The translations under genes and the position numbers were made by a program. Source: a virus (Duplodnaviria > Heunggongvirae > Uroviricota > Caudoviricetes). From it: 64,000 nt of DNA. Positions within the stretch are counted from its first letter, which is position 1; every line of letters begins with the position of its first letter. Where the stretch lies: IMG/VR virus record IMGVR_UViG_2850796239_000011, positions 29,227-93,226 of that record. One strand, 5' to 3'. Of the stretch, positions 18,752 through 62,671 are shown in pieces. The notes under the pieces were generated by a model that was given only the letters and a program-made list of their open reading frames with translations, did no database searches and was not told the DNA's origin.

Positions 18752-19984
18752 CTAGAGTTTCACACTGATATCCGACACATCCAGAACCGGAATCTCATCT
18801 ATCCCGAAAGTGACAGCCGTTGTCCATGACGAACCGTCACGGCTCACAGTAAGGCCCAGAATATCAATATGTTCCGGATCGGTTTTGTAAATGCCGGCAT
18901 AGTAGCGCCCGGCAGAGACAACAGAGGCAACCCTTGCCCGCAGACCACCATCTGTACCATTAAATGCGTCCAGCACGGATTGCTGTACCTGTCGGGTAAT
19001 ATCTGAAGGCAGGTAGTCACTTTTTTTCAGCGTCACACTGACATGCAGACTGACGGGTTTGAGTGTCTGCCAGCTGATCACGTATTCAGGATACGGCGGA
19101 TCGTACTCCTTATCTGCAACAGTGAACGTTGTGTTGCCATTCATATCAATACCCGGCGGAGCCTTACGCCAGATGGCCGCCGCGATATCTGCCGGGCTGC
19201 CGCCGTACACGCCAACATAAAGCGAACCGGGTGTTAATGGATACTGACTGACTCCGGCTTTTTGTTCTGTTTTTTTCGGATTATGGGTGACGTAAACATC
19301 CACCACGTTTTCTACCGTGGAGAGTATTTCACCCCGGATGGCTTCCAGAATATTCCGGGCATTACGGGCAACTGAATTACGTCGGCGGTTTTCAAAGTCC
19401 GCACGGGTTTCCTCATCGCTGCCCGGCACACCGGCACTGGCGTTAGTGACACCTGACCAGCCAGGTATTGCCTTATAAATTTTATTCAGCGTCCCCACAG
19501 GACAGCCGACGGGGCCGGTGGACAAATTCAGAAATACCGCATCAACCTGCCCTGATGCGCCGATAGTGACGTCTGACTGACTGACATACTTATAACCGGC
19601 CTCATCCTGCGCCATACTGCCCGCCGGGATCAGCGTGCCAACCAGCCCGGTACAGGTCGCTGTTACTGTCGTACCTGTGGCCCCGCGGCGCTCCAGGAAA
19701 TAAATCCTGCCTATTGCATCCTGAAAGCGACCACTGGAAAAGTCAGGGTTGATCTGGTTAACGATATACAGCAACTGGTCGTTTTTATCCGCAATAATGG
19801 CGCTTTCGCTGGATGCAAGTTGTCCCTGCGGACTGCTCAGACTGGTACTCATGGCCCCGCCCAGCGCCGCCGAAAAATCAGCAAGCCTGCCGCTCAGAAT
19901 ATCCGCTTCATCCGGCACATTCAGCCCGCGATCCGAAATCTGTACAGCGGGCACTGCGGTAGAAAAAGATTTATTTTCACTCAT
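18752..19984 (-). CDS. Baseplate J-like protein (Mu gp47 family)
   Basis: 410 aa; gene order sheath-tube-tape measure-baseplate. Confidence 0.7.
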   Translation of the reverse strand: MSENKSFSTAVPAVQISDRGLNVPDEADILSGRLADFSAALGGAMSTSLSSPQGQLASSESAIIADKNDQLLYIVNQINPDFSSGRFQDAIGRIYFLERRGATGTTVTATCTGLVGTLIPAGSMAQDEAGYKYVSQSDVTIGASGQVDAVFLNLSTGPVGCPVGTLNKIYKAIPGWSGVTNASAGVPGSDEETRADFENRRRNSVARNARNILEAIRGEILSTVENVVDVYVTHNPKKTEQKAGVSQYPLTPGSLYVGVYGGSPADIAAAIWRKAPPGIDMNGNTTFTVADKEYDPPYPEYVISWQTLKPVSLHVSVTLKKSDYLPSDITRQVQQSVLDAFNGTDGGLRARVASVVSAGRYYAGIYKTDPEHIDILGLTVSRDGSSWTTAVTFGIDEIPVLDVSDISVKL

Positions 19985-20337
19985 AGCAATACCGTAAAAA
20001 TGTCATTATTGGTATCTGTAATACGCAGCACACCTGTTACTGTCCGGGTTTGATCAGCTGTGACCTGGCAGACAGCGGCGCTCACGGTCGGCAGTTTAAG
20101 TGCTTCCTGTTGCAGAGTGGCATTCACCAGTTGTGTGCCGGGCCAGTGTCCGAGGATGCGTGGCCAGTAAGGTATGCCAGCCGTTGAGTCGTACCAGCAC
20201 TCCCCCAGAAAAGTACTGCACGCACACGCCACATCCTGAGCTACCGCATGGGGATTATCAGTAATGGCAAGATTTCCGGTATCATCAAGCAGGATATCCC
20301 ATGTCCCGGTGTCAAGAAGAAGTGATCGTGACTGCAT
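19981..20337 (-). CDS. Baseplate protein (Mu gp46-like)
   Basis: 118 aa, overlaps neighbours. Confidence 0.6.
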   Translation of the reverse strand: MQSRSLLLDTGTWDILLDDTGNLAITDNPHAVAQDVACACSTFLGECWYDSTAGIPYWPRILGHWPGTQLVNATLQQEALKLPTVSAAVCQVTADQTRTVTGVLRITDTNNDIFTVLL

Positions 20338-20349
20338 GTTTTCTCCTGT

Positions 20350-21027
20350 TTACCGGGGTCCCTGCGTGGTTGAGCCGCCGGACTCAACGCCGCCGTGAAC
20401 GTGGTTTCCAAAATCAATACCCCCGATGTTCGAACCGCCGGAAAGCCTGGACTGCCCGGTAACGTCAAGCCCCTTACTGACGGCGGTATCGCCGTTCAGC
20501 GCAATTTGTGGTGAATTAACGGTGAAGCTTTTCGGCGCATTAATCACACCCTCAGGCGCGGATATCTCCACTTTCCAGGGAGATACAATCCGTATCTGGT
20601 TGTCATCAAATACCACAAACTGGACGGGATCACCGTTGAGCACGCCACCCAGCCAGATGGCATCAGCATAATTATGGGTACGCTTTGATCCCGGCATCGC
20701 AGCCTGACGCGTGGCTTTTACCGCACTGATATCCCGATCGCAGATGGCAAGAAAACCGATATCCCCCACATGTGGCGGCATAATCACCGCATTACCGCCC
20801 CCCTGTAGTCGCCATACGGGAATGTTATAAATCACCTCATGTTCAACCGGGGAACCGTCTGCTGCAACGCCCATTACCATCGGTCGGGCCTCAATAAATC
20901 CCTCTTCCACGGCTACCACCCGTCCCAGAGTGATAAACGCATGACGTCCGAGAAACTGCCGCAGCATAAAGTCCTGTGCATTGATTTCGCTGTTCACGTC
21001 TGTCGGGTTACTGAGTGGTTGTGCCAT
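20350..21027 (-). CDS. Baseplate assembly protein V-like (spike)
   Basis: 225 aa; Gly-rich C-terminus. Confidence 0.6.
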   Translation of the reverse strand: MAQPLSNPTDVNSEINAQDFMLRQFLGRHAFITLGRVVAVEEGFIEARPMVMGVAADGSPVEHEVIYNIPVWRLQGGGNAVIMPPHVGDIGFLAICDRDISAVKATRQAAMPGSKRTHNYADAIWLGGVLNGDPVQFVVFDDNQIRIVSPWKVEISAPEGVINAPKSFTVNSPQIALNGDTAVSKGLDVTGQSRLSGGSNIGGIDFGNHVHGGVESGGSTTQGPR

Positions 21028-21877
21028 TTTCTTCAGCCCTCATCATGGTACAGTTGGAACTCCACGGACCGCCCACGGTTCGCGAAGTAATGGTGTGTAT
21101 CACCCCTGTGATCGTATAATCGCCCGTCATATCAGGCAGTGACGATTCCAGATGCGCTGGCCTGCCAGTAAAGAGATCGGGGCAGAATATCGTGGTGGCG
21201 CTGAGTCCGGTCATGGTGTAAACCGGATAGCCAGTCAGTCCGTGATCCGGCGAAATCAGTACCGGCGGAATATTCCGGTTCTGCCCTTTCGGCCAGATGG
21301 TGACTTTCTCCACATTCCCCAGATCAATGTTAATATCGGCGGCTGAAGCGACATCCAGCATTTGTTGTACAACATTACCGGAAAAATGCGGGTCAGACAG
21401 ACTGCGGCTGACCCCCTGGTTTTCAAATCCAAGCCCGACAGTTGACGCCAGCGCACGGATAATATCTGCAACCGCAACATCGCCCTTTGCGCTGAAATCT
21501 GCCGCCGGCTGATTACGCAGATTAAAATGAATCTGTCCTGTCAGAATGAGCGGAATATCCGGCGCCTGGTTGTAGTCGGCGTATGCATCAGTAATATCAC
21601 CTTCAAAAATAAGCCGCCCGTCGGCCCACAGCCGCATTTTATTTGCGGTACTCTGCTCCTGTCGCCACACACCGCGCCAGCTTAAATTCGTCATATGCGC
21701 CGGTGACATTCCCCAGATATACAGCGTGATTTGTGTACCAGCCACCCCTCCATATACGCCAATACTGGCAAAACAGCTTGCGTCGGTAATGGTCAGCATA
21801 TTGCCCTGGCCATTACCAAACGTTCGTCCGTCTGAAAGAGTGAACTCCACCGTTATTTTACGTTGTCTGTAGCTCAT
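21008..21877 (-). CDS. Baseplate hub/tail protein
   Basis: 289 aa, position. Confidence 0.5.
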
Positions 21878-22176
21878 ATCAGTTCCTCAGGTAACAGCCA
21901 GTAGAGCCGGTACCGGGATCCGAGCCCCCGCCAGTCAGGGTCACTATTCCCCTCCGTGTCGGTAAAAAACAGGTCCCCCTGAAACGGCAGGTATCCGTAC
22001 CGGACAATCCGGTTATTATTCAGACACAGCACGCCATACAGGCACGGTTCACCATTAACAATGATATCGATATACATCCCCGTAGTACGCTGATTCAGGC
22101 GAATGGTGCAGACCTGAGCGCCCAGTGTCACCGTAAACTGCTGGGCTTTAACGGGAGATAAAACAATTTCCAGCAT
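21874..22176 (-). CDS. Hypothetical tail protein (100 aa)
   Basis: Operon position. Confidence 0.4.
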
Positions 22177-22886
22177 CAGGTGATCCCCCTGTTCGTGGCG
22201 CTTCGTCTGTCAGCGTCTGACGGTTGTGTCACCGACGCCGTAACTGACTGCGTTTTAACCGATGCGGCCCCTTTTGCTTTATCGTTGTCCGTGGGAGACG
22301 ACTTATCCGTACTTCCCACTGACACCTCTCCTGTATTCATTACGGTCTGAAATACCGCAGTAACCGTCAGTAAGGTCGGACCATTATTACTTCGCATTCG
22401 GTAGTCATATTTCACAAGGTCGCAGGATGTCCATGTCTTGTCCGGCGTCTCAATATCGTAGAGTCCTGCCGTGGTACGCATCCTTTCAAGCGTTTCCAGC
22501 ACATTCGTCCGCGAGGTGGTGGAAAAATTTGTCAGGTTCGGGACGGATCCGGAAAAGGCCGTCCACCCCTCTACAGTGAAAGTCACATGCAGTTCCGGCG
22601 ATCTCTGGATTTTATTAAAGGTGGTATAAGCCCCCTGCTCCACGGGGACGGTGGAAACAGAAGCCTCCGCGCCCACCTCAACGACAACAAAAGAATCCGG
22701 GGAGAAAGGTTTGCCACCCTTCTGATGGGCACCTGCCGGATCATTCCGTGCGTAATAAATACCGAATGACGGTGCCAGTACACTGTTAATGAGTCCCAGG
22801 ACACCGCCGCCACGAACTGCACTCAGTACGTTACTTTCACTGAGCGAAAAGTTATTCAGGGAAATATTATCGAAAGAAAAACTCAT
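22176..22886 (-). CDS. Tail protein (236 aa)
   Basis: Operon position downstream of tape measure. Confidence 0.5.
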
Positions 22887-24373
22887 CCTGTTACCCCGCT
22901 GGAATAAACCGACACAAGCGCCGAATTCGTGATACGCCGACGTGCGTCATCGGTAATACCCTTCACATTGTCCGACGTTGTGGTGACATTCAGTGTCCCG
23001 ATATGCGTGGTTTCCGTTACGGTGGACTGCGATACAGGCGCAGGATGGCGCGACCGTATGGCCATTGCCGCACCCGGATAAGGCAGGTTCGCCAGCACCC
23101 GCGGAATATAGTTGCGGGTCTCCTCCGGAGCAGCAGCCAGTCCCTTACGCTGAACATTTCCCTCTCCCCAGTTATATGCCGCCAGAGCCTTAGCCAGATC
23201 GCCATGAAAAAAACGTATCAGGCCACCAAGTTTTCTCGCGGCGGCATCAGCGGCTTTTTCGGGATCAAAGGCATCGTTCCCCTCAGACCAAATTCACTGG
23301 CCGTCTTCGGCATGAACTGAAACAGTCCCATCGCACCAGCAGGTGAGACGGCAAACTGATTACCACGGGATTCGGTGATCGCAACGCTGCGCAGCAGTCC
23401 GGGCGGCAGGTTATATTTTTCCTCCAGTTGAGACAGTTTCGGTTGCAGCCAGCCTAACAGGGCTTCCCCGGTCTTCGTCGGTCGCTGGCGGTTTTGCATG
23501 GCATTACCGAGTTTTTCCTGCGTCGCACGCATACCCTGTAGCCAGGATTCACCGAAGGCTGCTTCCCTCCCGGTTGCCTGAGAAGCCTGAGTATCCAGCA
23601 TGCCCTGCTGCCATACTGTGGGTGATTGTGCCCGGGTGATGTTGCCAGGCTTTTCTCCGGCATCCAGTTTTGTCTGATACGTCTCCATCTCTTTCTTATT
23701 GAAAAAGAAAGTCCCGTCTGAAGCCCAGAAAAAACCATGTGAATCCAGCCAGTCCTTATTTTCCCTGCCAACAATGGATGTCAGTAATCCGTCAACAACC
23801 GGGTAAAGCGCCGTTATCGCAAAAAGAAGGCCTCCGGGGCCACTGAGGGCTTTTGTCAGCCCCCCGCACCCATGACGCCACTTTCAGCCCGATCAGCGTA
23901 ATAATGGCATTCTGCCAGCCCCCCAGTTCTCCGGCAGCCTTATTCGCCAGGGAGGCCACTGACTCAACGTCATTCAGAAATGTGGTGATAAACCTGTTCA
24001 CTTCCTCCGGATGTTGCTGCATCCAGTCACCGAGTGTCTCCAGCCAGTGGCTGAGCTTCAGCGCGTACGGCATCAACGCGGTGCTAATCGTCATCCCGAT
24101 GCCGGACCAGGTCTGATCGAGCTCAACAAGCTCTTTTCGTAGCTTACGGGCCAGCGCTATACGCCCCGGCGTAACCTGCGAACGGGAAGTAAATTCGTCC
24201 ACATCTTTCAGCGCATGACCGGAGCCAAGAAACTGCTGTCCGGCATAACTGAAGCCCAGCGCGTTGCCGTAGGCAGTTTGTTCGGACTTTGTCAGTCGCG
24301 GAAAAATAACCGCCAGCTTGCGCATGATGGCTTCAGTGCTGTCAGTATTTAAATCAACACTAGGCTGTGTCCC

Positions 24374-24889
24374 TTAATTACGTAAGCGTTGATAAAAGAG
24401 TCGGATGCAGCCCAGTTTCACCATCGCCAGGTAATTTCTCGCCGTTTTGTCGTAACGCGTGGCGATGCGGCGATATTCTTTCAGCCGCCCAAAGCACCGT
24501 TCAACGACATTACGATTGCGGTACGCATCACGATCAAGCTGTGCACGTCCATCCGATGCCATTTTCTCATTTGACTTTCGGGGGATTACTGCCTTTATAC
24601 CGTTATTTTTCAGCTCGTTGCGCAATGCGCGCCCTGAATACGCTTTATCAGCCAGTACCGCATGTCCACGGCGTTTCATGCTGCCGTTCTGACGCTGAAC
24701 GCCAATCCCGTCCAGAAGTCGTTGCGCGAACTGGCTTTCATGAGCTTGTCCGGGGCTTAGCACGATATTTAACGGGAGGCCACTTCCGTCTGTTGCCAGA
24801 TGGATTTTGGTGCCAAAACCGCCGCGAGAGCGACCCAGCCCATTATCTCCGTCGATATCGGGATGTTTTTTTGAGCACCGGCGGCACAT
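24374..24889 (-). CDS. IS5-family transposase OrfB (DDE part)
   Basis: Downstream overlapping frame; intact in this copy. Confidence 0.7.
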   Translation of the reverse strand: MCRRCSKKHPDIDGDNGLGRSRGGFGTKIHLATDGSGLPLNIVLSPGQAHESQFAQRLLDGIGVQRQNGSMKRRGHAVLADKAYSGRALRNELKNNGIKAVIPRKSNEKMASDGRAQLDRDAYRNRNVVERCFGRLKEYRRIATRYDKTARNYLAMVKLGCIRLFYQRLRN

Positions 24890-25218
24890 TTCAGCGCCCG
24901 GATATTACTGCCATCCAGCGCGGTGGCAGACCAGTCAATAAAGCCGTTTGCATCAAGTAGCGAAAGCAACCTGTTGAAAATAATATTAATCACGCCTGAC
25001 TTTGACCATCGGTTAAAGCGGTTATAAACAGTTTTCCATGACCCATATCGTTCGGGTAAATCGCGCCATGGTGCACCGGAACATAACACCCAGAACATGC
25101 CATTGATGATTTTACGGTGCTCAGCCCATGGGCGTCCGGCCCGTGGTGTGGCGGGTTCAGGAGGTAACAGGGGCTTGATGATGGTCCATGCCTCATCGGG
25201 AAGGTCGTAGCGAGCCAT
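24769..25218 (-). CDS. IS5-family transposase OrfA
   Basis: LPDEAW...GRP...WRDLPERYGSWKTVYNRFNRW motif. Confidence 0.8.
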   Translation of the reverse strand: MARYDLPDEAWTIIKPLLPPEPATPRAGRPWAEHRKIINGMFWVLCSGAPWRDLPERYGSWKTVYNRFNRWSKSGVINIIFNRLLSLLDANGFIDWSATALDGSNIRALKCAAGAQKNIPISTEIMGWVALAAVLAPKSIWQQTEVASR

Positions 25219-26029
25219 AGTTCAATATGTTGTGTAAACAGACAGTTACTATAGCTCAGATGATTAAGGGACACAGCCTAATGCCCGCCCTGGCTGCAAC
25301 CTGAAACAAATCCTGTAACACAGGATCAAAGGACCTTCCGGCTCTGAAGGCCGCTTTTGCATTTGCAAGCCGGGAAAATGCCCCAGACATTTCCCCTTCA
25401 TCAACATTATTTGCCCGCGCAGCCCGTAACCATCCGTCCAGATTTCTGGCCTTCATGCCAAAAGCATCAGATTCCACGGACAGACGGTTCAGATCACGGG
25501 CAAAACCTGTTACCAGGTTCTTCAGCCCCCCCAGCGTCAGACTGACACCCGCAAGAGCCAGAATCTCGCTACGGATCCCTGAAAAAAAACGGGACGCCCG
25601 TTTCCCGGCATCTTCCATTCGACGGGCCGTTTTATCAGCATCTTTTCCGGTTTTTTCCAGTGATTCACTGGTTTTCTTCTGTCCCTGACTGAATGTGTCA
25701 GCGACACCTTCCATCACCGTCGTGAGCCGGTTAAGGGCAGCATGTACTGCCTGTTCCCCGGCAGTAAAGTCCCTGTCATCAATCCCGAGGGACAGAACAA
25801 GCTCATCAAGTACCTGCGCCATTTCTGTTCTCCTGTATCACCTGTTCGTTATGGGCATCCACATGAATTATTTCCAGCAGATCCCATAAGTCCTGCACAC
25901 CAAGGACAGAATCCAGTTCAGCTTTTGAAGCCTTACCGGAGGAGATAACGGTCGCAATGGTACGGGGAACATTAACGTAATCCACCACCCCGAACGGTCT
26001 GTCGGGGTCGAGATAACGCGGGGGGATAT

Positions 26030-26434
26030 CTAGCTGACGACGGTAGCGAAAAAATCCACATGCAGCTTAAAGACCTCCGCACGCAGATTAAGACGGGTAA
26101 TGATTTCTTCAATATCCTCTTCAACAAGCGGTCTCCGGATGCTGCGTTTTTTCGGATCGGGAACAAACTGCACACAGTCCATCATTTCATCCATCAACGG
26201 ACGCGCCTCATCAGGCGGAATTTTCGATAATGCTTTCAGCCCTTCAAGGGCAAGCGCAGCCATCCCCAGACTACGAACATCATCCGGTAACTCCACGCCA
26301 CCACGCCCCATTGCCATAATGGCACGCATCGCCCACCATTCCGCCTGTAAGGCAGACATTTCGGTAAGATGAAATACCTTGCCCTTATCCCGTCCCTGAC
26401 CTTCAATAGTGATAAATTTCTCTTTACGGGCCAT
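26030..26434 (-). CDS. Putative tail assembly chaperone
   Basis: 134 aa between tube and tape measure. Confidence 0.45.
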   Translation of the reverse strand: MARKEKFITIEGQGRDKGKVFHLTEMSALQAEWWAMRAIMAMGRGGVELPDDVRSLGMAALALEGLKALSKIPPDEARPLMDEMMDCVQFVPDPKKRSIRRPLVEEDIEEIITRLNLRAEVFKLHVDFFATVVS

Positions 26435-26880
26435 CAGTTAAAAACCTCCGGAGTAATGGTTTCCCACTCAATAACCGCCTGCCCTGGCTGCAACGTACGA
26501 GCTGCATCAGGCAGCGCTTTCCATTGTTTGAGTACGCCATTCACGCAGGTATATTTACGGCCAATCGCCGGAAGCAGGACGACAGCGTTACAACGGAATA
26601 CAGCCCGACTGGCCCGGGATGTGGTTGACCAGGTATCAAAAATATCCCGGCTGGGGGAATCCGGCATGATATGAAACGTCTGGATAATGTTGCTGTACAC
26701 AAATCCCGCGGACAGTTTACCGTCAATACCGCGGGCAGTTTCCGCCAGTACCAGTGGATCGGTGCCATAAACGTTATCTGTTGCAAATCCCTGAAGTCGT
26801 ACGCCGGAGGGATACAGATTATTCACTGTCAGCGTGATAATGGCATCCGCCGCAGTGATGGTGTTGTTGTTACCCGACAT
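26434..26880 (-). CDS. Tail tube protein
   Basis: 148 aa immediately downstream of sheath. Confidence 0.6.
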   Translation of the reverse strand: MSGNNNTITAADAIITLTVNNLYPSGVRLQGFATDNVYGTDPLVLAETARGIDGKLSAGFVYSNIIQTFHIMPDSPSRDIFDTWSTTSRASRAVFRCNAVVLLPAIGRKYTCVNGVLKQWKALPDAARTLQPGQAVIEWETITPEVFN

Positions 26881-28365
26881 TTACTGGACCTCCGTGGATG
26901 CAATAACAAGTTTCTGGATACTACCGCCGTCACAGTACCAGAGCGTACAGGACGGACTGCTACGGGTTGCCCGCAAAGAGGGAAGCATATCGCCGATATA
27001 CAGGTAATAGCCGGTGGCAAACAACGTTGAAGAAACATCTGCCCCCACAACATTGTTAATCTGTTTCTTCTGCGCCTCCGTCAGTGTCACCCCTTCACGG
27101 ATCCCTCCCCAGCGTTTGTACTGCTGGATAACGTCACTCATTGACGCTGCAACCAGCGCCCGCCCTTCATTGTTGTAGGGGATCGTCTGGTTTGACTTGA
27201 ATAACGCGATCACCGCCCCCTGCAAACTGGCATTCAGCCAGATTTGCCCGCAGAAACTGTCCAGCCATTTAAAATCACCGGTAATAGTGCCATCCGCCCA
27301 GTAATCTTCCACCACACTGTTTTCCGCATATTTTCCGTAGAAATTGTAACCTGCGGCGATCAGCGCATCATAATCGCTGCCACTGGTAACATCAGCGGCC
27401 AGCCCCTCATACTCGCGGAACTTGAATGATACACGCCCCTCTGGTCGGACAAAATCAAGGCACGCTGCATACCCCAGTACCGCTGCAGCCCGGTTACCAT
27501 CAGTCGCGAAAACAGGTACAACAGAGCTGTAGTTATTGACAGCAATTATCTGGTAAGCGATGTGTTTAGTACTGCCTTTTACTCTGGCGTTGCCGCTGGT
27601 TGTCCATGCCACATAAAAGTAACGCTTGCCCTGCCCGTTTGCCCATGCAGAAAACGCCAGGTGTTGCTCGTCAGTGACCTCAGATACCGTGGAAAAACCC
27701 GCCCATTGCTGGGAAGCGGCCTTAATGGCTGCCATTGTGTCAGGGACATCAGATACAGGCGCGCCCCGGGATATCACCGCACCGGTGTTACTGGTCATCT
27801 TCAGGAGTTCTGCTGCCGATCCACTGCCGAACGTTATCGTGGTACTCCCGGGTTTCGCACCGGCGACAGTAATGACAAAAGCATTCTGTGTGGTATCGAA
27901 TACCACTGTAGCCACTGCTGCGGTCAGCGCTGTCTGTAGTGCCGTTGCAGCAGCGGCGAAGCTGGCGACACCGTTAAAATTCACTTCAATGCTGACGCTT
28001 TTCCCGTTAATACTCAGCATCAGCGTGCCGGAAAGTTTTTGTAGCTGTTCAACAGTCGCGCCCTTAAACGAACCGCTACGTAACCAGGCCGCCGATGGGG
28101 CAGGACTGAAACGGGAAAACAACAATTGCCCCGGCGTCCTGGTGGCATTTTTGAAGCCCTGGAAATAAAGCTGAGCGCGTGCGTACTCATCGGATAATGC
28201 ACCAAAATACGCGGCCACATCATCCGGAGAGGAAAACGGAACCACAGTGCCGACCGGAAGTAACGGATTACTGGTCAACAGCAGGCCGTTAAGATCAACG
28301 GCATTACCCGCCACAGCCAGCACACCGGGATTTATCTGTACATCTTTACTGAGTGGAATTGGCAT
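26881..28365 (-). CDS. Tail sheath protein
   Basis: 494 aa, position and size. Confidence 0.75.
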
Positions 28366-32134: not shown

Positions 32135-32135
32135 A

Positions 32136-53733: not shown

Positions 53734-53748
53734 GCGCTGACAAAGCGC
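53734..53748 (+). promoter_or_regulatory. nutL boxB hairpin (P22 type)
   Basis: GCGCTGACAAAGCGC as recalled for P22 boxB; upstream of P22-type N. Confidence 0.6.
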
Positions 53749-53913
53749 AATAACCAAAGTGAACTTTGGGGTGTGGTGAAGGGTTCATGGATGGGAATAT
53801 GTCGCACGTAAAGCGGCGAGGCCTGCGGGACTATTGCCGAATTGAAGTAGGCCGAAACAGGTCAAAATGGGTCTCCCACTTACCACACCACCAAAGTTCA
53901 TCAGGAGGTCTAT

Positions 53914-54299: not shown

Positions 54300-54731
54300 A
54301 TGGATTTAAATAAATTAGAAGCGTTATTAGAAGCATCAGTAAAAAATTTTATCTCAGTACTTGATGAAAAAACTGAAGATATTAAGAAGGCAAATATTGT
54401 CGAACTTGTAAAAACAAGAGCCAGTACATTTGATCATCTTCCTGATGATGTCCGGTCAGCGGCAATTCGCGTATATGTAACGGCACTAAGCAATAGTGAA
54501 CCACCAATTGATGAAGAATCAAGAGATATTCAGAAAAAACGGTTTGAGATGTTAGCCAGCAACATTATCGCTGGTTTCACACGGCTCTTAACAAAAGAGC
54601 ATGCCAGTGAAGCTATTCGCCAGCAGGCTCAGGTAATTATTAATCAGGCAGAAACTATTTCACGTGAGCGAAAAGAATTTCGTAAAGAGGTTTCTGAGCT
54701 TCAAGCATCTCAACCGCAATCCACTATTTAA
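54300..54731 (+). CDS. Hypothetical protein (143 aa)
   Basis: Translationally coupled to N; followed by a 28-aa acidic ORF at 54740..54826. Confidence 0.5.
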   Translation: MDLNKLEALLEASVKNFISVLDEKTEDIKKANIVELVKTRASTFDHLPDDVRSAAIRVYVTALSNSEPPIDEESRDIQKKRFEMLASNIIAGFTRLLTKEHASEAIRQQAQVIINQAETISRERKEFRKEVSELQASQPQSTI

Positions 54732-54809
54732 GGTGATATATGGAAGAAGAATTTGAAGAGTTCGAAGAGCATCCTCAGGATGTGATGGAACAATACCAGG
54801 ACTATCCTT

Positions 54810-55010
54810 ATGACTACGACTATTGATAAAAATCAATGGTGTGGACAATTCAAGCGATGCAATGGATGCAAGCTGCAATCGGAATGCATGGTTAAGCCTG
54901 AAGAAATGTTTCCTGTAATGGAAGATGGGAAATATGTCGATAAATGGGCAATACGAACGACGGCAATGATTGCCAGAGAACTTGGTAAACAGAACAACAA
55001 AGCTGCCTGA
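54810..55010 (+). CDS. ral: Restriction alleviation protein Ral
   Basis: 66 aa, matches recalled lambda Ral. Confidence 0.8.
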   Translation: MTTTIDKNQWCGQFKRCNGCKLQSECMVKPEEMFPVMEDGKYVDKWAIRTTAMIARELGKQNNKAA

Positions 55011-55192
55011 TAGTGGCCTTTATTTTTGGCATAAATAACAGAATAAACACTACACTGTGTATTCATTCCAACGAGTGAATACACGGAGCAATGTCGCTCG
55101 TAACTAAACAGGAGCCGACTTGTTCTGATTATTGGAAATCTTCTTTGCCCTCCAATGTGAGGGCGATTTTTTATCTGTGAGGATATGAACAG

Positions 55193-55561
55193 ATGCCAAA
55201 CATCAAAAAATACATCATTGATTACGACTGGAAAGCATCAATAGAAATTGAAATCGACCATGACGTAATGACAGAGGAAAAACTTCACCAGATTAATAAT
55301 TTCTGGTCAGACTCTGAATACCGACTAAATAAACACGGCTCTTTATTAAATGCTGTATTAATCATGCTGGCGCAACATGTTCTGCTTATAGCAATTTCGA
55401 AAGACTTAAATGCATATGGTGTTGTGTGTGAGTTCGACTGGAATGATGGAAATGGTCAGGAAGGATGGCCTCCAATGGATGGTAGCGAAGGAATAAGAAT
55501 TACCGATATCGATACATCAGGAATATTTGATTCAGATGATATGACTATCAAGGCCGCCTGA
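55193..55561 (+). CDS. Lambda Ea10-like protein
   Basis: 122 aa in the lambda ea10 position. Confidence 0.55.
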   Translation: MPNIKKYIIDYDWKASIEIEIDHDVMTEEKLHQINNFWSDSEYRLNKHGSLLNAVLIMLAQHVLLIAISKDLNAYGVVCEFDWNDGNGQEGWPPMDGSEGIRITDIDTSGIFDSDDMTIKAA

Positions 55562-55633
55562 GTGCGGCTTTACCGCATACCAATAACGCTTCACTCGAGG
55601 CGTTTTTCGTTATGTATAAATAAGGAGCACACC

Positions 55634-55798
55634 ATGCAATATGCCATTGCAGGGTGGCCTGTTGCTGGCTGCCCTTCCGAATCTTTACTTGAACGAATCA
55701 CCCGTAAATTACGTGACGGATGGAAACGCCTTATCGACATACTTAATCAGCCAGGAGTCCCAAAGAATGGATCAAACACTTATGGCTATCCAGACTAA
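55634..55798 (+). CDS. cIII: CIII (FtsH inhibitor)
   Basis: 54 aa identical to recalled lambda CIII. Confidence 0.9.
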   Translation: MQYAIAGWPVAGCPSESLLERITRKLRDGWKRLIDILNQPGVPKNGSNTYGYPD

Positions 55799-55910
55799 AT
55801 TCACTATCGCCACTTTTATTGGCGATGAAAAGATGTTTCGTGAAGCCGTCGACGCTTATAAAAAATGGATATTAATGCTGAAACTGAGATCAAGCAAAAG
55901 CATTCACTAA
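55767..55910 (+). CDS. kil: Kil (host killing protein)
   Basis: 47 aa, lambda Kil; overlaps cIII 3' end. Confidence 0.85.
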
Positions 55911-56281
55911 CCCCCTTTCCTGTTTTCCTAATCAGCCTAGCATTTCGCGGGCGATATTTTCACAGCTATTTCAGGAGTTCAGCCATGAACGCTTATTACA
56001 TTCAGGATCGTCTTGAGGCTCAGAGCTGGGCGCGTCACTACCAGCAGATCGCCCGTGAAGAGAAAGAGGCAGAACTGGCAGACGACATGGAAAAAGGCCT
56101 GCCCCAGCACCTGTTTGAATCGCTATGCATCGATCATTTGCAACGCCACGGGGCCAGCAAAAAAGCCATTACCCGTGCGTTTGATGACGATGTTGAGTTT
56201 CAGGAGCGCATGGCAGAACACATCCGGTACATGGTTGAAACCATTGCTCACCACCAGGTTGATATTGATTCAGAGGTATAA
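55865..56281 (+). CDS. gam: Gam (RecBCD inhibitor)
   Basis: 138 aa, near-identical to lambda Gam. Confidence 0.95.
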
Positions 56282-56286
56282 AACGA

Positions 56287-57072
56287 ATGAGTACAGCACT
56301 CGCAACGCTGGCAGGGAAGCTGGCTGAACGTGTCGGCATGGATTCTGTCGACCCACAGGAACTGATCACCACTCTTCGCCAGACGGCATTTAAAGGCGAT
56401 GCCAGCGATGTGCAGTTCATCGCATTGCTGATCGTCGCCAACCAGTACGGCCTTAATCCGTGGACGAAAGAAATTTACGCCTTTCCTGACAAGCAGAACG
56501 GCATCGTTCCGGTGGTGGGCGTTGATGGCTGGTCCCGCATCATCAATGAAAACCAGCAGTTTGATGGCATGGACTTTGAGCAGGACAATGAATCCTGTAC
56601 ATGCCGGATTTACCGCAAGGACCGCAATCATCCGATCTGCGTTACCGAATGGATGGATGAATGCCGCCGCGAACCATTCAAAACCCGCGAAGGCAGAGAA
56701 ATCACGGGGCCGTGGCAGTCGCATCCCAAACGGATGTTACGGCATAAAGCCATGATTCAGTGTGCCCGTCTCGCCTTCGGATTTGCTGGTATCTATGACA
56801 AGGATGAAGCCGAGCGCATTGTCGAAAATACCGCATACACTGCAGAACGTCAGCCGGAACGCGACATCACTCCGGTTAACGATGAAACCATGCAGGAGAT
56901 TAACACTCTGCTGATCGCCCTGGATAAAACATGGGATGACGACTTATTGCCGCTCTGTTCCCAGATATTTCGCCGCGACATTCGAGCATCGTCAGAACTG
57001 ACACAGGCCGAAGCAGTGAAAGCTCTTGGATTCCTGAAACAGAAAGCCACTGAGCAGAAGGTGGCAGCATGA
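56287..57072 (+). CDS. bet: Bet (Red-beta single-strand annealing protein)
   Basis: 261 aa, lambda Bet. Confidence 0.95.
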
Positions 57073-57749
57073 CACCGGACATTATCCTGCAGCGTACCGG
57101 GATCGACGTGAGAGCTGTCGAACAGGGGGATGATGCATGGCACAAATTACGGCTCGGCGTCATCACCGCTTCAGAAGTTCACAACGTGATAGCAAAGCCC
57201 CGCTCAGGAAAGAAGTGGCCTGACATGAAAATGTCCTACTTCCACACCCTGCTGGCTGAGGTTTGCACCGGTGTGGCTCAGGAAGTTAATGCTAAGGCGC
57301 TGGCATGGGGAAAACAGTACGAGAACGACGCCAGAACTCTGTTTGAATTCACTTCCGGCGTGAATGTTACTGAATCCCCGATCATCTATCGCGACGAAAG
57401 TATGCGCACCGCCTGCTCTCCCGATGGTTTATGCAGTGACGGCAATGGCCTTGAGCTGAAATGCCCGTTTACCTCCCGGGATTTCATGAAGTTCCGGCTC
57501 GGTGGTTTCGAGGCCATAAAGTCGGCTTACATGGCCCAGGTGCAGTACAGCATGTGGGTGACACGAAAAGATGCCTGGTACTTTGCCAACTATGACCCGC
57601 GTATGAAGCGTGAAGGACTGCATTATGTCGTGGTTGAGCGGGATGAAAAGTACATGGCGAGTTTTGACGAGATGGTGCCGGAGTTCATCGAAAAAATGGA
57701 CGAGGCACTGGCTGAAATTGGTTTTGTATTTGGGGAGCAATGGCGATGA
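57069..57749 (+). CDS. exo: Exo (lambda exonuclease)
   Basis: 226 aa, lambda Exo. Confidence 0.95.
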
Positions 57750-57928
57750 CGCATCCTCACGATAATATCCGCGTAGGCACGATCACTTTCGTCTACTCCG
57801 TTACGAAGCGAGGCTGGGTATTTCCCGGCCTTTCTGTTATCCGAAATCCCCTGAAAGCACAGCGGCTGGCTGAGGAGATAAATAATAAACGGGGAGCTGT
57901 ATGCACAAAGCATCTCCCGTTGAGTTAA
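57740..57928 (+). CDS. Lambda orf60a-like protein
   Basis: 62 aa, position after exo. Confidence 0.6.
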
Positions 57929-58092
57929 GAACGAGTATCGAGATGGCACATAGCCTCGCTCAAATTGGAGTCAGGTTTGTGCCAATACCAGTAGAAACAG
58001 ACGAAGAATTTCATACGTTAGCCGCATCCCTTTCACAAAAGCTGGAAATGATGGTGGCGAAAGCAGAAGCAGATGAGAGAGACCAGGTATGA
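57901..58092 (+). CDS. Lambda orf63-like protein
   Basis: 63 aa. Confidence 0.6.
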   Translation: MHKASPVELRTSIEMAHSLAQIGVRFVPIPVETDEEFHTLAASLSQKLEMMVAKAEADERDQV

Positions 58093-58168
58093 CAACCACG
58101 GAATGCATTTTTCTGGCAGCGGGCTTCATATTTTGTGTGCTTATGCTTGCCGACATGGGACTTGTTCA

Positions 58169-58384
58169 ATGACACCTCAGCAAGAAAACGCCCTTCGCAG
58201 CATTGCCCGTCTGGCTAACTCTGAAATCAAAAAAGCCAGACAGCAGTTTCCGGATAAAAACGTCGATGACATTTGCCGTAGCGTACTGAAGAAGCATCGC
58301 GAAACGGTAACGCTGATGGGATTCACACCGACTCATTTAAGTCTGGCGATCGGCATGTTAAACGGCGTCTTTAAGGAGCGATGA
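58169..58384 (+). CDS. Lambda orf61-like protein
   Basis: 71 aa from ATG 58169. Confidence 0.55.
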   Translation: MTPQQENALRSIARLANSEIKKARQQFPDKNVDDICRSVLKKHRETVTLMGFTPTHLSLAIGMLNGVFKER

Positions 58385-58482
58385 ACATGAAAAGCAAAAT
58401 CATCAGGGAGCTACAGGCTCCTTTTTTATTGTTCGCATTCACCCTCAAGCGTATTAACCAACAATTCAGGGATTAATGGAAG

Positions 58483-58704
58483 ATGGCAGACATCATTGAT
58501 TCAGCATCAGAAATTGAAGAATTACAGCGCAACACAGCAATAAAAATGCGCCGCCTGAACCACCAGGCTATATCTGCCACTCATTGTTGTGAGTGTGGCG
58601 ATCCGATAGATGAACGAAGACGCCTGGTCGTTCAGGGTTGTCGGACTTGTGCAAGTTGCCAGGAAGATCTGGAGCTTATCAGTAAACAGAGAGGTTCGAA
58701 GTGA
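58483..58704 (+). CDS. DksA/TraR-type C4 zinc-finger protein
   Basis: CCECGDPIDERRR...CRTCASCQ motif. Confidence 0.7.
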   Translation: MADIIDSASEIEELQRNTAIKMRRLNHQAISATHCCECGDPIDERRRLVVQGCRTCASCQEDLELISKQRGSK

Positions 58705-59072
58705 GTGAAATTAACTCTCAGGCACTGCGTGAAGCGGCAGAACGCGCTATTCCGGCAATGGAACGATTGTTGATACTTTCATTTGATGATAGGTTGTTAA
58801 GCGACCAGGAACTAAAAGATTACGACGTGGATATTGATGCGATTAACAACTTCAAACTGCTGGCCGGTCCGAAAACGGTACTGGCGCTGCTAGATGAACG
58901 GGAAAGAAACCAGCAATACATCAAACGCCGCGACCAGGAGAACGAGGAAATTGCGCTAACGGTAGGAAAGCTGCGCGTTGAGCTGGAAGCAGCAAAATCA
59001 AAACTCAACGAGCAGCGTGAATATTACGAAGGTGTTATCTCGGATGGAAGTAAGCGTATTGCTGAACTGTAG
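58701..59072 (+). CDS. Hypothetical protein (123 aa)
   Basis: Coupled to upstream gene; coiled-coil-like C-terminus. Confidence 0.5.
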   Translation: MSEINSQALREAAERAIPAMERLLILSFDDRLLSDQELKDYDVDIDAINNFKLLAGPKTVLALLDERERNQQYIKRRDQENEEIALTVGKLRVELEAAKSKLNEQREYYEGVISDGSKRIAEL

Positions 59073-59322
59073 GCCTAGGTTGTATGTACAAGATTTGCAT
59101 ACGTAAGAGCAAAAGACAAGGGAGAATTGATCAGAGTTATTACCTGCCAACCAACGGGATATTACGCTTACGTACCATGTAACTAGGAATCCTTGAAGTG
59201 GCAGCCTAACTGTGGATACACTGAAATGGCGATTTGGTAACATGTTTCGCACAAGGCTGTTACTACGCTTAGAGATAATCAGTCATGATTAAATGCTTTG
59301 TAAAAAGTAAAAGGAAATTACA

Positions 59323-59937
59323 ATGAAAAAATCAACACTAATTTTAGGGCTTACGTTAATTGTCTCATCTCAAATACCATCGGCAATGGCAAAAAATGAA
59401 TCAAAACTTTGGGTTGTTGTTGATCGAACGGAAAGACATACCTGCCCTTCAAGTAAATGTGGAGTGGCTGGGAAACTATTTTTCAGGGAAGGCGTAGATT
59501 TTCTAGAAAAAAAAGGTGAATGGGTTCGTATAACTGAGCCATATTCAGCCTCATGTATGGGAGGGGAAAGCGAATATATTAAAGAAGGTAATAAATCCTG
59601 CACAAGAAAAAACGGAATCGTTAATGGCAAGTTTTCAGAATGGGTTAAACTTAGTGATCTTAGCAGTGAAAGGCCATCAGATCCTGCTGAAAATGCGAGC
59701 GGAAATGATACCTTAATCAAAGGATCTGATGACTACCGTATATACAAAAAAGAGTTTTCTTCGGCAGCTAGGAAGTTAATAAGTGAAGGTGTCTGCACGG
59801 AGAGCGATTTTAAGGAAATTGGAGGGTGGATGGCATCAAGCAATAAGGGTGAAAACATCTATTTCACATATTGCGGAGGAATGACGTTGTCGAACAGAAT
59901 ATATCTAGACGTTAAAAGTGGAAAGACTTTTAGATAA
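59323..59937 (+). CDS. Secreted protein of unknown function (moron)
   Basis: Signal peptide ending AMA; several Cys; visibly AT-rich; followed by hairpin. Confidence 0.6.
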   Translation: MKKSTLILGLTLIVSSQIPSAMAKNESKLWVVVDRTERHTCPSSKCGVAGKLFFREGVDFLEKKGEWVRITEPYSASCMGGESEYIKEGNKSCTRKNGIVNGKFSEWVKLSDLSSERPSDPAENASGNDTLIKGSDDYRIYKKEFSSAARKLISEGVCTESDFKEIGGWMASSNKGENIYFTYCGGMTLSNRIYLDVKSGKTFR

Positions 59938-60005
59938 TATGATATTACCAATGACAGCATTAATTTAATGCCTCCATAGAATTATCTCTAGGAAGTAAGT
60001 ATAAG

Positions 60006-60040
60006 AAAAGCCCGCACAATGAGCTGCTGCGGGCTTTGTG
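60006..60040. terminator. Putative terminator hairpin after moron
   Basis: AGCCCGCA-N11-TGCGGGCT with T-rich flank. Confidence 0.4.
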
Positions 60041-60239
60041 TTATTCGCCATATTTTATGAAGCAAATACGACACTATAGATAATTAAGCGTTACTGGTTG
60101 TCGATTCCTCACTCATTCCTGCTGATGGCTGTCTTCTTGTATGTGCCATTGAAGGGTAATATCGCGTAAAAAGATACCGGAAGTATCCGCGCCGCCATGA
60201 TTGTCTTTCTCCTGATGCAGGAAAAGCAGAATGACTAAA

Positions 60240-60570
60240 TCAGCAGCAGAGCGCAAAGCCGATCAGAGAGCCAAGCAAGCATCATCCGGTATGCGTAAGC
60301 TGGAGCTTGTACTTGATGCTCAGGAAATTGAAATGCTGGAGCGTAACTGAGCCACGCGCCGCTTCAGGCGTGCGCCTTACGAGTTTGGTGAGTACATAGC
60401 GTTACTGAGCCGCCAGGATGATGCACGTGTGCGCTGGCGTATAAAATCGATTAGCAGAAAACGTTGCCGTAAGTGCGGCGAGAGAGTTCCTGTTAATTCA
60501 TGCCCGTGTAATGGTGACTCACAATACTGGGTGACCAAAGGCTGGCACGAAACAAAATTAATGATATAAA
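60240..60570 (+). pseudogene. Small Cys-rich ORF split by an in-frame TGA
   Basis: Hand translation: 39 codons, TGA at 60357..60359, then 70 in-frame codons with CxxC...CxC. Confidence 0.35.
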
Positions 60571-60597
60571 TCTCTGTGACATGTCACGGAGGCGGCA

Positions 60598-61026
60598 ATG
60601 AAATTAGACCAGCAATATCTAAAAGATCTACTTATCGCATTCGAAAAAACTTATGGCCCTGACACGATGCTTAGTGAACTAGAGGATAATGGCTTTAATA
60701 GATATGACCAAAATTTTATTTTCCATATGCGATTATTATGTGACTACGAATTAATAGTTAGGGTTGATGGAAAACCTGGGTTCGGTCATATAATGTCCAA
60801 CGAGTTAGGGGAAGGTGTTGAATATAGTTGGATCGAAGTACCACTGAGGTTGACAGCAAGAGGGCATGATTTTATTGCTGACTTACGTCAAAAGGAGGTC
60901 TGGCAAGCTATAAAAACAAACTTTAAGGATGAGGGAATTAGTACTCTTATGAGTGTTTCAAAATCACTAGCAAAAGGCTTTGCAAGGAAAAAAATAAAAG
61001 ATATTACAGGAATAGATATTGAATAA
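60598..61026 (+). CDS. DUF2513-like protein (142 aa)
   Basis: AT-rich gene near int; family by recall. Confidence 0.5.
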   Translation: MKLDQQYLKDLLIAFEKTYGPDTMLSELEDNGFNRYDQNFIFHMRLLCDYELIVRVDGKPGFGHIMSNELGEGVEYSWIEVPLRLTARGHDFIADLRQKEVWQAIKTNFKDEGISTLMSVSKSLAKGFARKKIKDITGIDIE

Positions 61027-61316
61027 TTCTTAGCATCAAGCAACTACTGCCTTTGGTAAAAATTATATCTGAACTCGATACGGCGAGTTTTGTTTTACGG
61101 AGATGATAAATGCACTTCAGAGTCACTGGTGAATGGAATGGAGAACCATTCAACAGAGTTATCTAAGCAGAGAACATCAATGACTGCTATGACCACTGGA
61201 TGATATGGGCGCAGATAGCACATGCAGACATAACCAATATTCGAATTGAAGAACTGAAAGAACACCAAGCCGCCTGATGGCGGTTTTTTCTTGCGTGTAA
61301 TTGCGGAGACTTTGCG

Positions 61317-61535
61317 ATGTACTTGACACTTCAGGAGTGGAACGCTCGCCAGCGACGCCCAAGAAGCCTTGAAACAGTTCGTCGATGGGTGCGCGAATGC
61401 AGGATATTCCCTCCTCCGGTTAAGGATGGAAGAGAATATCTGTTCCACGAATCAGCGGTAAAGGTTGACTTAAATCGACCAGTAACAGGTAGCCTTTTGA
61501 AGAGGATCAGAAATGGGAAGAAGGCGAAGTCATGA
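61317..61535 (+). CDS. xis: Excisionase Xis (lambda)
   Basis: 72 aa, near-identical to lambda Xis. Confidence 0.95.
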   Translation: MYLTLQEWNARQRRPRSLETVRRWVRECRIFPPPVKDGREYLFHESAVKVDLNRPVTGSLLKRIRNGKKAKS

Positions 61536-62583
61536 GCGCCGGGATTTACCCCCTAACCTTTATATAAGAAACAATGGATATTACTGCTACAGGGACCCAA
61601 GGACGGGTAAAGAGTTTGGATTAGGCCGAGACAGGCGAATCGCAATCACTGAAGCTATACAGGCCAACATTGAGTTATTTTCAGGACACAAACACAAGCC
61701 TCTGACAGCGAGAATCAACAGTGATAATTCCGTTACGTTACATTCATGGCTTGATCGCTACGAAAAAATCCTGGCCAGCAGAGGAATCAAGCAGAAGACA
61801 CTCATAAATTACATGAGCAAAATTAAAGCAATAAGGAGGGGTCTGCCTGATGCTCCACTTGAAGACATCACCACAAAAGAAATTGCGGCAATGCTCAATG
61901 GATACATAGACGAGGGAAAGGCGGCATCAGCCAAGTTAATCAGATCAACACTGAGCGATGCATTCCGAGAGGCTATGGCTGAAGGCCATATAACAACAAA
62001 CCCGGTCGCAGCCACTCGCGCTGCAAAATCAGAGGTAAGGAGATCAAGACTTACGGCTGACGAATACCTGAAAATTTATCAAGCAGCAGAATCATCACCA
62101 TGTTGGCTTAGACTTGCAATGGAACTGGCTGTTGTTACCGGGCAGCGAGTTGGTGATTTATGCGAAATGAAGTGGTCTGATATCGTAGATGGATATCTTT
62201 ATGTCGAGCAAAGCAAAACAGGCGTAAAAATTGCCATCCCAACAACATTGCATGTTGATGCTCTCGGGATATCAATGAAGGAAACACTTGATAAATGCAA
62301 AAAGATTCTTGGCGGAGAAACCATAATTGCATCTACTCGTCGTGAACCGCTTTCATCCGGCACAGTATCAAGGTATTTTATGCGCGCACGAAAAGCATCA
62401 GGTCTCTCCTTCGAAGGGGATCCGCCAACCTTTCACGAGTTGCGCAGTTTGTCTGCAAGACTCTATGAGAAGCAGATAAGCGATAAATTTGCTCAACATC
62501 TTCTCGGGCATAAGTCGGACACCATGGCATCACAGTATCGTGATGACAGAGGCAGGGAGTGGGACAAAATTGAAATCAAATAA
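61513..62583 (+). CDS. int: Integrase Int (lambda)
   Basis: 356 aa, near-identical to lambda Int. Confidence 0.95.
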   Translation: MGRRRSHERRDLPPNLYIRNNGYYCYRDPRTGKEFGLGRDRRIAITEAIQANIELFSGHKHKPLTARINSDNSVTLHSWLDRYEKILASRGIKQKTLINYMSKIKAIRRGLPDAPLEDITTKEIAAMLNGYIDEGKAASAKLIRSTLSDAFREAMAEGHITTNPVAATRAAKSEVRRSRLTADEYLKIYQAAESSPCWLRLAMELAVVTGQRVGDLCEMKWSDIVDGYLYVEQSKTGVKIAIPTTLHVDALGISMKETLDKCKKILGGETIIASTRREPLSSGTVSRYFMRARKASGLSFEGDPPTFHELRSLSARLYEKQISDKFAQHLLGHKSDTMASQYRDDRGREWDKIEIK

Positions 62584-62671
62584 TGATTTTATTTTGACTG
62601 ATAGTGACCTGTTCGTTGCAACAAATTGATAAGCAATGCTTTTTTATAATGCCAACTTAGTATAAAAAGCA
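62584..62671. other. attL (lambda P' arm plus core) at the prophage-chromosome junction
   Basis: P' arm sequence, core TTAGTATAAAAAGC (five A), then chromosomal arm AGGCTTCAACGGATTC. Confidence 0.8.

Follow-up and report, generated by a model that had tools for sequence, protein, structure and literature searches.

A probable defective lambdoid mosaic prophage at the lambda attachment site beside ybhC, with an E217/Pam3/XM1-type contractile-tail module

The window analysed here is a stretch of 64,000 nucleotides (nt), positions 29,227 to 93,226 of the virus record IMGVR_UViG_2850796239_000011. Its positions 18674–62668, which we call prophage 2, are very probably a defective mosaic lambdoid prophage at the lambda attachment site adjoining ybhC. 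The modules follow the canonical lambdoid order (attL, int-xis, Red genes, N/nutL, cI-cro-cII, replication, nin, Q/PR′, tRNAs, lysis, virion). The virion module of ~20 kb, known here from its genes alone, is a contractile-tail module of the E217/Pam3/XM1 type with a DUF3383 sheath. Prophage 2 as a whole appears to be a truncated remnant riddled with insertion sequences (IS), predicted to be unable to excise, package DNA, assemble tails or lyse its host. Searches were made against 50,697 phage records and 5426 complete E. coli genomes. The modules differ in their nearest relatives, and no single phage or genome was found to cover the whole 44 kb, which upholds the preliminary description of this region as a mosaic. 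In DNA comparisons a single phage record accounts for at most 46% of the early half, and for the late half the maximum is 10%. Coverage of 80% or more is reached for the early half in no complete E. coli genome and for the late half in five of the 5426.

Attachment site and ends of the prophage

The features that define the two ends are as follows.

61317–61535, plus strand: xis
61513–62583, plus strand: int
62584–62668, plus strand, approximate left limit: attL (P′ arm, core and bacterial B arm)
18674–18751, minus strand: stump of a DUF2612 baseplate/tail gene, 78 bp, first ~26 codons

The right end is an attL (B-O-P′) junction at ~62584–62668, directly adjoining ybhC (62717–64000). The 150 bp past int correspond to the P′ arm of lambda attP, and bacterial DNA follows from the core TTAGTATAAAAAGCAGGC. 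Positions 61062–62668, comprising xis, int and the P′ arm, align with lambda 29333–27727 at 97.6% nt identity (blastn), and Int and Xis are 99% identical to those of lambda in amino acids (aa). The attL core (window 62640–62672) has five T/A against six in lambda, and the lambda core GCTTTTTTATACTAA, searched with at most one mismatch, has no match in the window. The prophage at the ybhC site of E. coli FDAARGOS_944 carries the identical T5 variant (locus L005, 24380–24410). Decay or sequencing error was therefore rejected as the source of the T5 core, which is taken to be a lineage variant. No second copy of the att core is present within the window.

The preliminary description had placed the prophage at 18752–62671; its right end, with attL beside ybhC, was correct, but the true left end is 18674, where the DUF2612 stump precedes the baseplate genes. 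Similarity to the intact relative in CFSAN029787 extends 78 bp past 18752 into the 5′ end of the DUF2612 gene (locus L001, 13913–13990) and stops at the breakpoint 18673|18674. The stump is fused directly to the end of the integrase gene of prophage 1 (17335–18648), a gene that adjoins yecE in CFSAN029787. To account for the truncation, an IS or another att copy was sought at this joint, and neither was found; between window positions 18600 and 18760 the junction shows a 3 bp microhomology, CTG, only. The left end is truncated by a chromosomal rearrangement with no IS at the joint, and because the breakpoint lies inside the DUF2612 gene, the tail-fibre genes and attR have been lost.

Prophage 1 (window 1–18673) is a separate lambdoid-like element that runs off the left edge of the window. 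Its genes include those for a replicative helicase, a Rha regulator, a LexA-type repressor, an excisionase and the 437-aa integrase, and over the first 1.2 kb it departs from the CFSAN029787 relative. An insertion of prophage 1 into prophage 2 was considered and rejected, since these first 1.2 kb are prophage 1's own late/Q region and do not match the tail-fibre region of L001.

Composition of the virion module

The virion genes occupy the late half of prophage 2 and comprise a baseplate block (18752–22886), a tape-measure pseudogene, a tail core (25806–28365), a neck/connector block (28346–30623), the major capsid gene, a head/packaging block (31652–37359) and the small terminase gene.

18752–19984, minus strand: baseplate J
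19981–20337, minus strand: sheath-initiator-like protein
20350–21027, minus strand: spike with gpV apex
21008–21877, minus strand: hub
21874–22176, minus strand: plug
22176–22886, minus strand: Dit-like baseplate protein
22883–25822, minus strand: tape-measure/lytic-transglycosylase pseudogene
25806–25988 and 26030–26434, minus strand: small tail open reading frames (ORFs)
26434–26880, minus strand: tube
26881–28365, minus strand: sheath
28346–28891, minus strand: tail terminator
28876–29241, minus strand: collar-like protein
29238–29822, minus strand: 194-aa gene
29812–30270, minus strand: DUF4054 protein
last gene of the neck/connector block, minus strand: 115-aa gene, truncated
30615–31652, minus strand: major capsid protein
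31652–32134, minus strand: cement/minor capsid protein
32136–33545, minus strand: DUF2213 protease/scaffold
33470–34078, minus strand: Mu-F head morphogenesis protein
34199–35749, minus strand: DUF1073 portal
35740–37359, minus strand: large terminase subunit (TerL)
37362–39183, minus strand: small terminase gene (terS), interrupted by IS600

The sheath matches DUF3383 (PF11863) over its full length (4e-140), the PHROG tail sheath family (2e-115) and, in the PDB, the E217 gp31 sheath (1e-16). The tube matches the Pfam family E217_Gp32 (2e-17). In the baseplate block the Pfam matches are Baseplate_J, gpV Apex, E217_GP41, Pam3_gp18 and Dit_like, and the PHROG matches are baseplate wedge and hub. 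Phage_tail_terminator_9 and DUF4054 are matched in the neck, where E217_gp28 falls just under its cut-off (26.3 against 27). The major capsid protein matches the PHROG major head protein (8e-86), and the head/packaging block is recognized by XM1_gp53/Phage_cement, DUF2213, Phage_Mu_F and Phage_portal_3 in Pfam and by TerL, portal and protease in PHROG. E217_Gp32, E217_GP41, Pam3_gp18 and XM1_gp53/Phage_cement all score above their cut-offs and lie in conserved order, as in an E217/Pam3/XM1-type module.

The preliminary description was right that the module is myovirus-like with sheath, tube and baseplate genes; all of these are present in Pfam, PHROG and PDB searches, together with hub, plug and spike. 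Its label 'Mu-like' has to be withdrawn. The sheaths of SfV and Mu belong to a different family from the DUF3383 sheath. No virion ORF of the window has a tblastn match to Mu or SfV at E ≤ 1e-3, so that the gpL/gpM/gpN/gp44–48 set of Mu (orf11–20 of SfV) was not recovered. An intact temperate mosaic phage with a Mu-like or SfV-like virion module would account for the sheath, tube and baseplate genes, and it could draw on the Phage_Mu_F head domain and on baseplate J, whose family includes Mu gp47; that head domain and the Baseplate_J superfamily are all that the module has in common with Mu. The empty tblastn search, the match of the DUF3383 sheath to E217 gp31, and the three IS, several frameshifts and missing tail fibres and attR of this copy make such a phage very improbable. 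Lambda head and non-contractile tail genes (A–J) were likewise not found, with neither blastn nor tblastn giving a match to lambda 1–23 kb, and the element does not belong with Lambdavirus.

We compared the module with contractile-tailed phages at the protein level, the only level at which relatives were found among the phage records; megablast of the module against them returned nothing outside the lysis genes. Klebsiella phage RCIP0114 has the genes between portal and baseplate J in collinear order, at 33–70% aa identity, with 33–56% in the baseplate block and 70% for the major capsid protein, but it has a different TerL and shows likeness in proteins only. In Salmonella phage SEN34 (Brunovirus), TerL is 85% identical, whereas the other matching virion proteins (portal, head, spike, baseplate J) reach only 23–30%. 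The virion module is itself mosaic in this respect: TerL (35740–37359) has its 85% match in SEN34 and none in RCIP0114, and the portal is 59% identical to that of RCIP0114 and 25% to that of SEN34. Across portal, capsid and sheath, the closest isolated phage reaches ~57% aa identity at most. The structure-solved simple myoviruses E217 (a PB1-like Pseudomonas phage), Pam3 (a cyanophage) and XM1 (a Vibrio phage) supply the families that match sheath, tube, hub, plug, cement and collar. The relationship to E217 is distant (sheath E ~1e-16); E217 is a virulent phage of ~66 kb without lambdoid regulation.

Lambdoid early genes (exo, ninB, Q, SAR endolysin, for signal-anchor-release) also accompany this kind of contractile-tail module in RCIP0114 and its relatives (ST15-VIM1phi2.1, KP12, klb_E) and in SEN34, all of them temperate phages that have been isolated or induced. 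SfV and SfI are also lambdoid phages with contractile tails (PMC3636060). The preliminary description had singled out the coupling of contractile-tail genes to an early region of siphovirus type; this is present but not unusual, being shared by SfV, SfI, SEN34 and RCIP0114.

Insertion sequences, frameshifts and loss of function

Three IS copies interrupt late genes of prophage 2.

24363–25278, no strand assigned: ISSfl7-like IS5-family element, 916 bp, TA target duplication, inside the tape-measure gene
37449–38712: IS600, 1264 bp, 3 bp target duplication, inside terS
41134–42048: ISSfl7-like IS5-family element, 915 bp, TA target duplication, inside the endolysin gene

The two ISSfl7-like copies are 99.9% identical, have the terminal inverted repeats GGCTGTGTCCCTTAAT and encode a DDE_Tnp_1 transposase domain; PGAP calls matching copies ISSfl7 family. 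The element occurs in 46 of the 5426 complete E. coli genomes, and its best-matching genomes, among the matches listed, overlap the carriers of the same virion module. Removal of IS600 restores a TerS of 184 aa, and terS is intact in CFSAN029787. Three IS600 copies of 1264 bp, 99.8–99.9% identical, lie in the window, two in prophage 1 (10525–11788 and 15293–16556) and one in terS of prophage 2.

Single-base frameshifts were judged against CFSAN029787 only. The tape-measure gene has indels at 23279 (−1) and 23860 (+1), and its reconstruction without the IS still lies in three reading frames, whereas the intact 673-aa homologue of CFSAN029787 has an SLT domain. In the 115-aa neck gene a −1 frameshift at 30508 leaves 68 of 115 aa. 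In the major capsid gene, 1 bp deletions at 30631 and 30672 replace the last 15 aa by 18 out-of-frame residues, and in the head-morphogenesis gene a frameshift at 34088 removes the N-terminal 27 aa. The DUF2213 protease/scaffold gene has a 12 bp in-frame deletion.

Since IS elements split terS, the tape-measure gene and the endolysin gene, four genes are frameshifted, and the tail fibres and attR are lost, prophage 2 would be expected neither to excise nor to form particles. The preliminary description had implied an intact phage genome and missed the three late-gene IS, the several frameshifts and the loss of tail fibres and attR. Three points weigh against our reading of a decayed lambdoid mosaic. 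The single-base frameshifts could be sequencing errors, the T5 attL core, common to another genome, gives no support for decay, and sequence cannot tell a mosaic formed in a free phage from one assembled in the chromosome. Errors of the single-base kind can explain neither the IS insertions nor the truncation.

Early region, immunity and N

The early half is made up of the following features.

58701–59072, plus strand: Ea22-like accessory ORF
59323–59937, plus strand: phrog_8310 accessory ORF
60598–61026, plus strand: DUF2513 accessory ORF
54713–58741, plus strand: ral, ea10, cIII, kil, gam, bet, exo, orf60a, orf63, orf61
53914–54297, plus strand: N antiterminator, 127 aa
53734–53748, plus strand: nutL boxB, GCGCTGACAAAGCGC
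52577–53110, plus strand: ORF of unknown function
52046–52387, plus strand: DUF3024 protein
51271–52008, plus strand: cI repressor
50965–51210, minus strand: cro
50912–50926, minus strand: nutR boxB, TCGCTGACAAAGCGA
50527–50826, minus strand: cII
49345–50232, minus strand: O-like initiator
47919–49370, minus strand: DnaB-like helicase

The block from ral to orf61 is 98.0% identical in nt over 4030 bp to lambda 34384–30355 (blastn), and its proteins are 95–100% identical to their lambda counterparts. Together with the 97.6% block of int and xis, this bears out the near-identity to lambda that had been noted for the integration and recombination modules; Int, Xis, Bet, Exo, Gam and Q are 97–99% identical to the lambda proteins. 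The lambdoid arrangement of att-int-xis at one end, followed by a leftward-transcribed recombination module, is present. The Ea22-like, phrog_8310 and DUF2513 ORFs (58701–61026) are not of lambda type.

The immunity region (50527–53110, both strands) has a divergent cI against cro-cII, flanked by N with nutL and by nutR, which is also a lambdoid arrangement. The cI repressor has HTH_3 and Peptidase_S24 domains (Pfam). The region from cII to DUF3024 is 99.4% identical in nt to the prophage that occupies this chromosomal site in FDAARGOS_944 and 94.9% to the Stx1 phage SH2026Stx1. In replication, the helicase is 100% identical in aa to that of HK630 (HK620-type) and 99.8% to that of the Stx-like phage phi315, while the O-like initiator (PHROG: replication initiation O-like) is only 55% identical to the HK630 and phi315 counterparts.

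N and both boxB hairpins had been described as P22-type, and this stands for boxB but not for N. Both hairpins carry the GACAA loop. The nutL boxB 15-mer at 53734, GCGCTGACAAAGCGC, does not differ from the nutL boxB of P22, and the second boxB TCGCTGACAAAGCGA, between cro and cII, has the P22 loop with a stem that differs in the terminal base pair only. P22 nut sites have a boxA, whereas no canonical boxA (CGCTCTTTA; YGCTCTTWA) was found upstream of either boxB (50890–50965, 53700–53750). The N gene has no DNA match to P22 gene 24 (blastn). BLASTP of N against P22 gp24 aligns the last 30 aa only, at 70%, so that the homology is not full length; the arginine-rich motifs (ARMs) GNSRSRRRER of N and GNAKTRRHER of P22 resemble each other. 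N is 100% identical in aa to N of phi315, matches N_peptide in Pfam, and has 127 aa with the ARM 12-RSRRRER-18. H-19B N has the same length and the same ARM (PMC3526286). Because N lacks a match to P22 gp24 beyond the last 30 aa, equals N of phi315, has the length and ARM of H-19B N and is accompanied by no canonical boxA, it is classified, from its sequence, as an N of the H-19B/Stx-phage type with a P22-like boxB loop.

The early half can thus be set beside two groups of phages. With lambda (NC_001416), prophage 2 shares the P′ arm with int and xis, the ral-orf61 block, Q, PR′/qut, the gene order as a whole and the use of attB next to ybhC for integration; N, the nut sites, cI/cro, O, P, S and R differ, a DnaB-type helicase replaces P, and the lambda head and tail genes are absent. 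With the Stx-type phages vB_EcoP_phi315 and SH2026Stx1 it shares the types of N, immunity and helicase, and its nutL region is 96.8% identical in nt to phi315. It differs from them in having no stx genes and another type of Q, and the virions of those phages are short-tailed (Sepvirinae).

Q, late promoter, tRNAs and lysis cassette

Between replication and the virion module lie the following features.

43456–47619, minus strand: nin region with NinH, RusA, YbcO, two Ant-type antirepressors and NinB
45957–46719, plus strand: HigB-like (Gp49/DUF891) toxin and helix-turn-helix antitoxin
42836–43459, minus strand: Q antiterminator, lambda type
42612–42835, minus strand: late promoter PR′ (42825–42797, TTGACT-17-TAAATT) with qut, then leader
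42452–42607, minus strand: tRNA-Thr(TGT) and tRNA-Asn(GTT)
42120–42335, minus strand: class II holin (pinholin), phage-21 S type, 71 aa, MKSM dual-start motif
40706–42120, minus strand: SAR endolysin, R21/RrrD type, split by IS after ~codon 23
40242–40721, minus strand: Rz spanin, with embedded Rz1 lipoprotein at 40283–40489 (lipobox VVGC)
39285–40036, minus strand: 85-aa ORF and KilA-N/ORF11CD3 protein (accessory late genes)

The late control region has the lambdoid succession of Q with PR′/qut, then lysis genes, then a single late virion operon. Q is 99% identical in aa to lambda Q and 97% to P22 gp23. In nt, the Q/PR′ region (42783–43469) is 91.9% identical to lambda (blastn) and the Q gene alone 96.4% (megablast). 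PR′ and qut were located by alignment and a promoter scan; the PR′/qut 37-mer is identical to P-late of P22 and differs from lambda at two positions. The near-identity to lambda claimed earlier for Q/PR′ therefore holds, with the two mismatches. Beyond PR′/qut the leader diverges. A strict scan for intrinsic terminators found no tR′ in it, and folding pointed instead to a tR′-like long-loop hairpin with a U-run, AUUUUUUAU (fold centroid), at the end of the leader. The two tRNA genes (ARAGORN) lie between PR′ and the lysis genes. SfI is reported to have the same two, tRNA-Asn and tRNA-Thr, downstream of Q (PMC3636060).

The lysis genes are of the phage-21 type, as had been proposed, although the endolysin gene is disrupted here. 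The holin matches PF04971, 'Bacteriophage P21 holin S' (1e-35). With the ISSfl7-like copy removed, the endolysin has 165 aa and matches PDB 3hde (4e-107, full length) and RrrD (4zpu, 6e-108), differing from RrrD at ~8 positions. Its N-terminal Gly/Ala-rich SAR segment is AVAVAIGGGAVAIASVLITG, and E35, D44 and T50, which we take to be the catalytic triad of R21, are present. Prophage 2 has the pinholin and SAR endolysin types of phage 21 and DLP12 RrrD (PDB 3hde, 3hdf, 4zpu) in common with these systems, apart from the IS in the endolysin. The spanin matches Phage_lysis (4e-30) and is 64% identical in aa to lambda Rz. The KilA-N/ORF11CD3 protein was assigned by Pfam, and the DNA of the two accessory late genes resembles that of HK620 and Stx phages at the same position. 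In the nin region, NinB is 96% identical in aa to that of HK630, the DNA is 95–96% identical to the RMDEC465 prophage, and the toxin–antitoxin pair lies on the opposite strand.

Because of these homologies, we infer a regulatory order of cI, then N/boxB, then Q/PR′. In the intact element, cI would repress PL and PR. After induction, the H-19B-type N would bind the GACAA-loop boxB hairpins and antiterminate early transcription. Q would then modify RNA polymerase at PR′/qut, so that transcription passes the tR′-like terminator and continues through the tRNAs, lysis cassette and virion operon.

Relatives and origin of the mosaic

The closest relatives of the late half are prophages of enteroinvasive E. 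coli, in RMDEC465 (NZ_CM177019, 5.05–5.10 Mb) and CFSAN029787 (NZ_CP011416, 0.52–0.55 Mb). They lie next to ipaH, and their virion modules are 99.4–99.8% identical in nt to that of the window. The RMDEC465 prophage is collinear with window 18666–46937 at 95–99.6%, through virion, lysis, tRNA-Asn/Thr, lambda-type Q and nin. Both prophages keep DUF2612, the tail-fibre genes and ipaH, but they occupy another locus and differ in replication, immunity and early-left genes. They are without the IS600 and ISSfl7-like insertions of this window, and the tape-measure gene of RMDEC465 has an IS66-family element.

The composition of prophage 2 raises the possibility that two resident prophages recombined in the chromosome through a shared Q-tRNA-holin/nin segment during large rearrangements, which are typical of enteroinvasive E. 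coli and Shigella. The first parent would be an attλ prophage with lambda int like that of FDAARGOS_944, and the second an ipaH-linked prophage of myovirus type normally near yfaQ/rcsC. At its ybhC site FDAARGOS_944 has the same int, immunity (99.4%) and Q (99.7%) down to 42119, followed by a different endolysin, and at the holin/endolysin boundary (42049–42119) the prophage of enteroinvasive E. coli takes over from FDAARGOS_944 as the best match. In CFSAN029787 and RMDEC465 the late half lies at another locus, and the left end of prophage 2 is already rearranged, being fused to an integrase gene that normally abuts yecE. However, recombination between lambdoid phages at module boundaries yields an identical pattern, and the window alone cannot discriminate between the two. 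The RMDEC465 prophage already joins the late module to a lambda-type Q and nin in one prophage, so a chromosomal event is not required, and we regard a chromosomal chimera as a tentative proposal that is rather unlikely.

The switch at 42049–42119 also bears on the quality of the assembly. Contigs of different prophages could have been joined through repeated Q/holin or IS sequences, and five IS copies and two lambdoid prophages in one window are classic causes of misassembly. The module switches nevertheless lie off the IS copies, except for that at 42049–42119, which lies directly against the right end of one of them (41134–42048). Each IS has a clean target duplication within an otherwise continuous gene, and several of the joints recur in independent complete genomes. 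An assembly artefact is hence highly unlikely, and prophage 2 is best read as a genuine mosaic lambdoid remnant.

In enteroinvasive E. coli (L001 9336–13990; L011 6540–12987), the virion module is followed by DUF2612, the tail-fibre genes and the type III secretion system effector gene ipaH. This order suggests ipaH as cargo of the prophage type that carries the virion module. We consider it conceivable, though doubtful, that the late half is what remains of an uncharacterised lineage, namely temperate myoviruses of the E217/Pam3 type under lambdoid regulation, which in enteroinvasive E. coli and Shigella carries ipaH past the tail fibres. If so, in this copy the lineage would have exchanged its early half with phages of the lambda and Stx types and moved to attλ. 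As the closest isolated phage reaches only ~57% aa identity, the vehicle of the chromosomal ipaH copies would then belong to a type of phage that has yet to be studied.

All of the modules are already known, as is the overall architecture, and lambdoid mosaicism and the control of contractile-tail virion genes by lambdoid early regions are long established (SfV, SfI, SEN34). A virion module beside ipaH in enteroinvasive E. coli, with no isolated close relative, is a modest lead. For annotation, the late module should be labelled DUF3383/E217-type and N labelled H-19B/Stx-type, and prophage predictors should not score this fixed, non-inducible remnant as intact. The remnant probably still confers immunity through its repressor, and expression of accessory genes, among them the HigB-like toxin–antitoxin pair, is also probable. 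At the position of this pair, FDAARGOS_944 has a different RelE/HigA pair.

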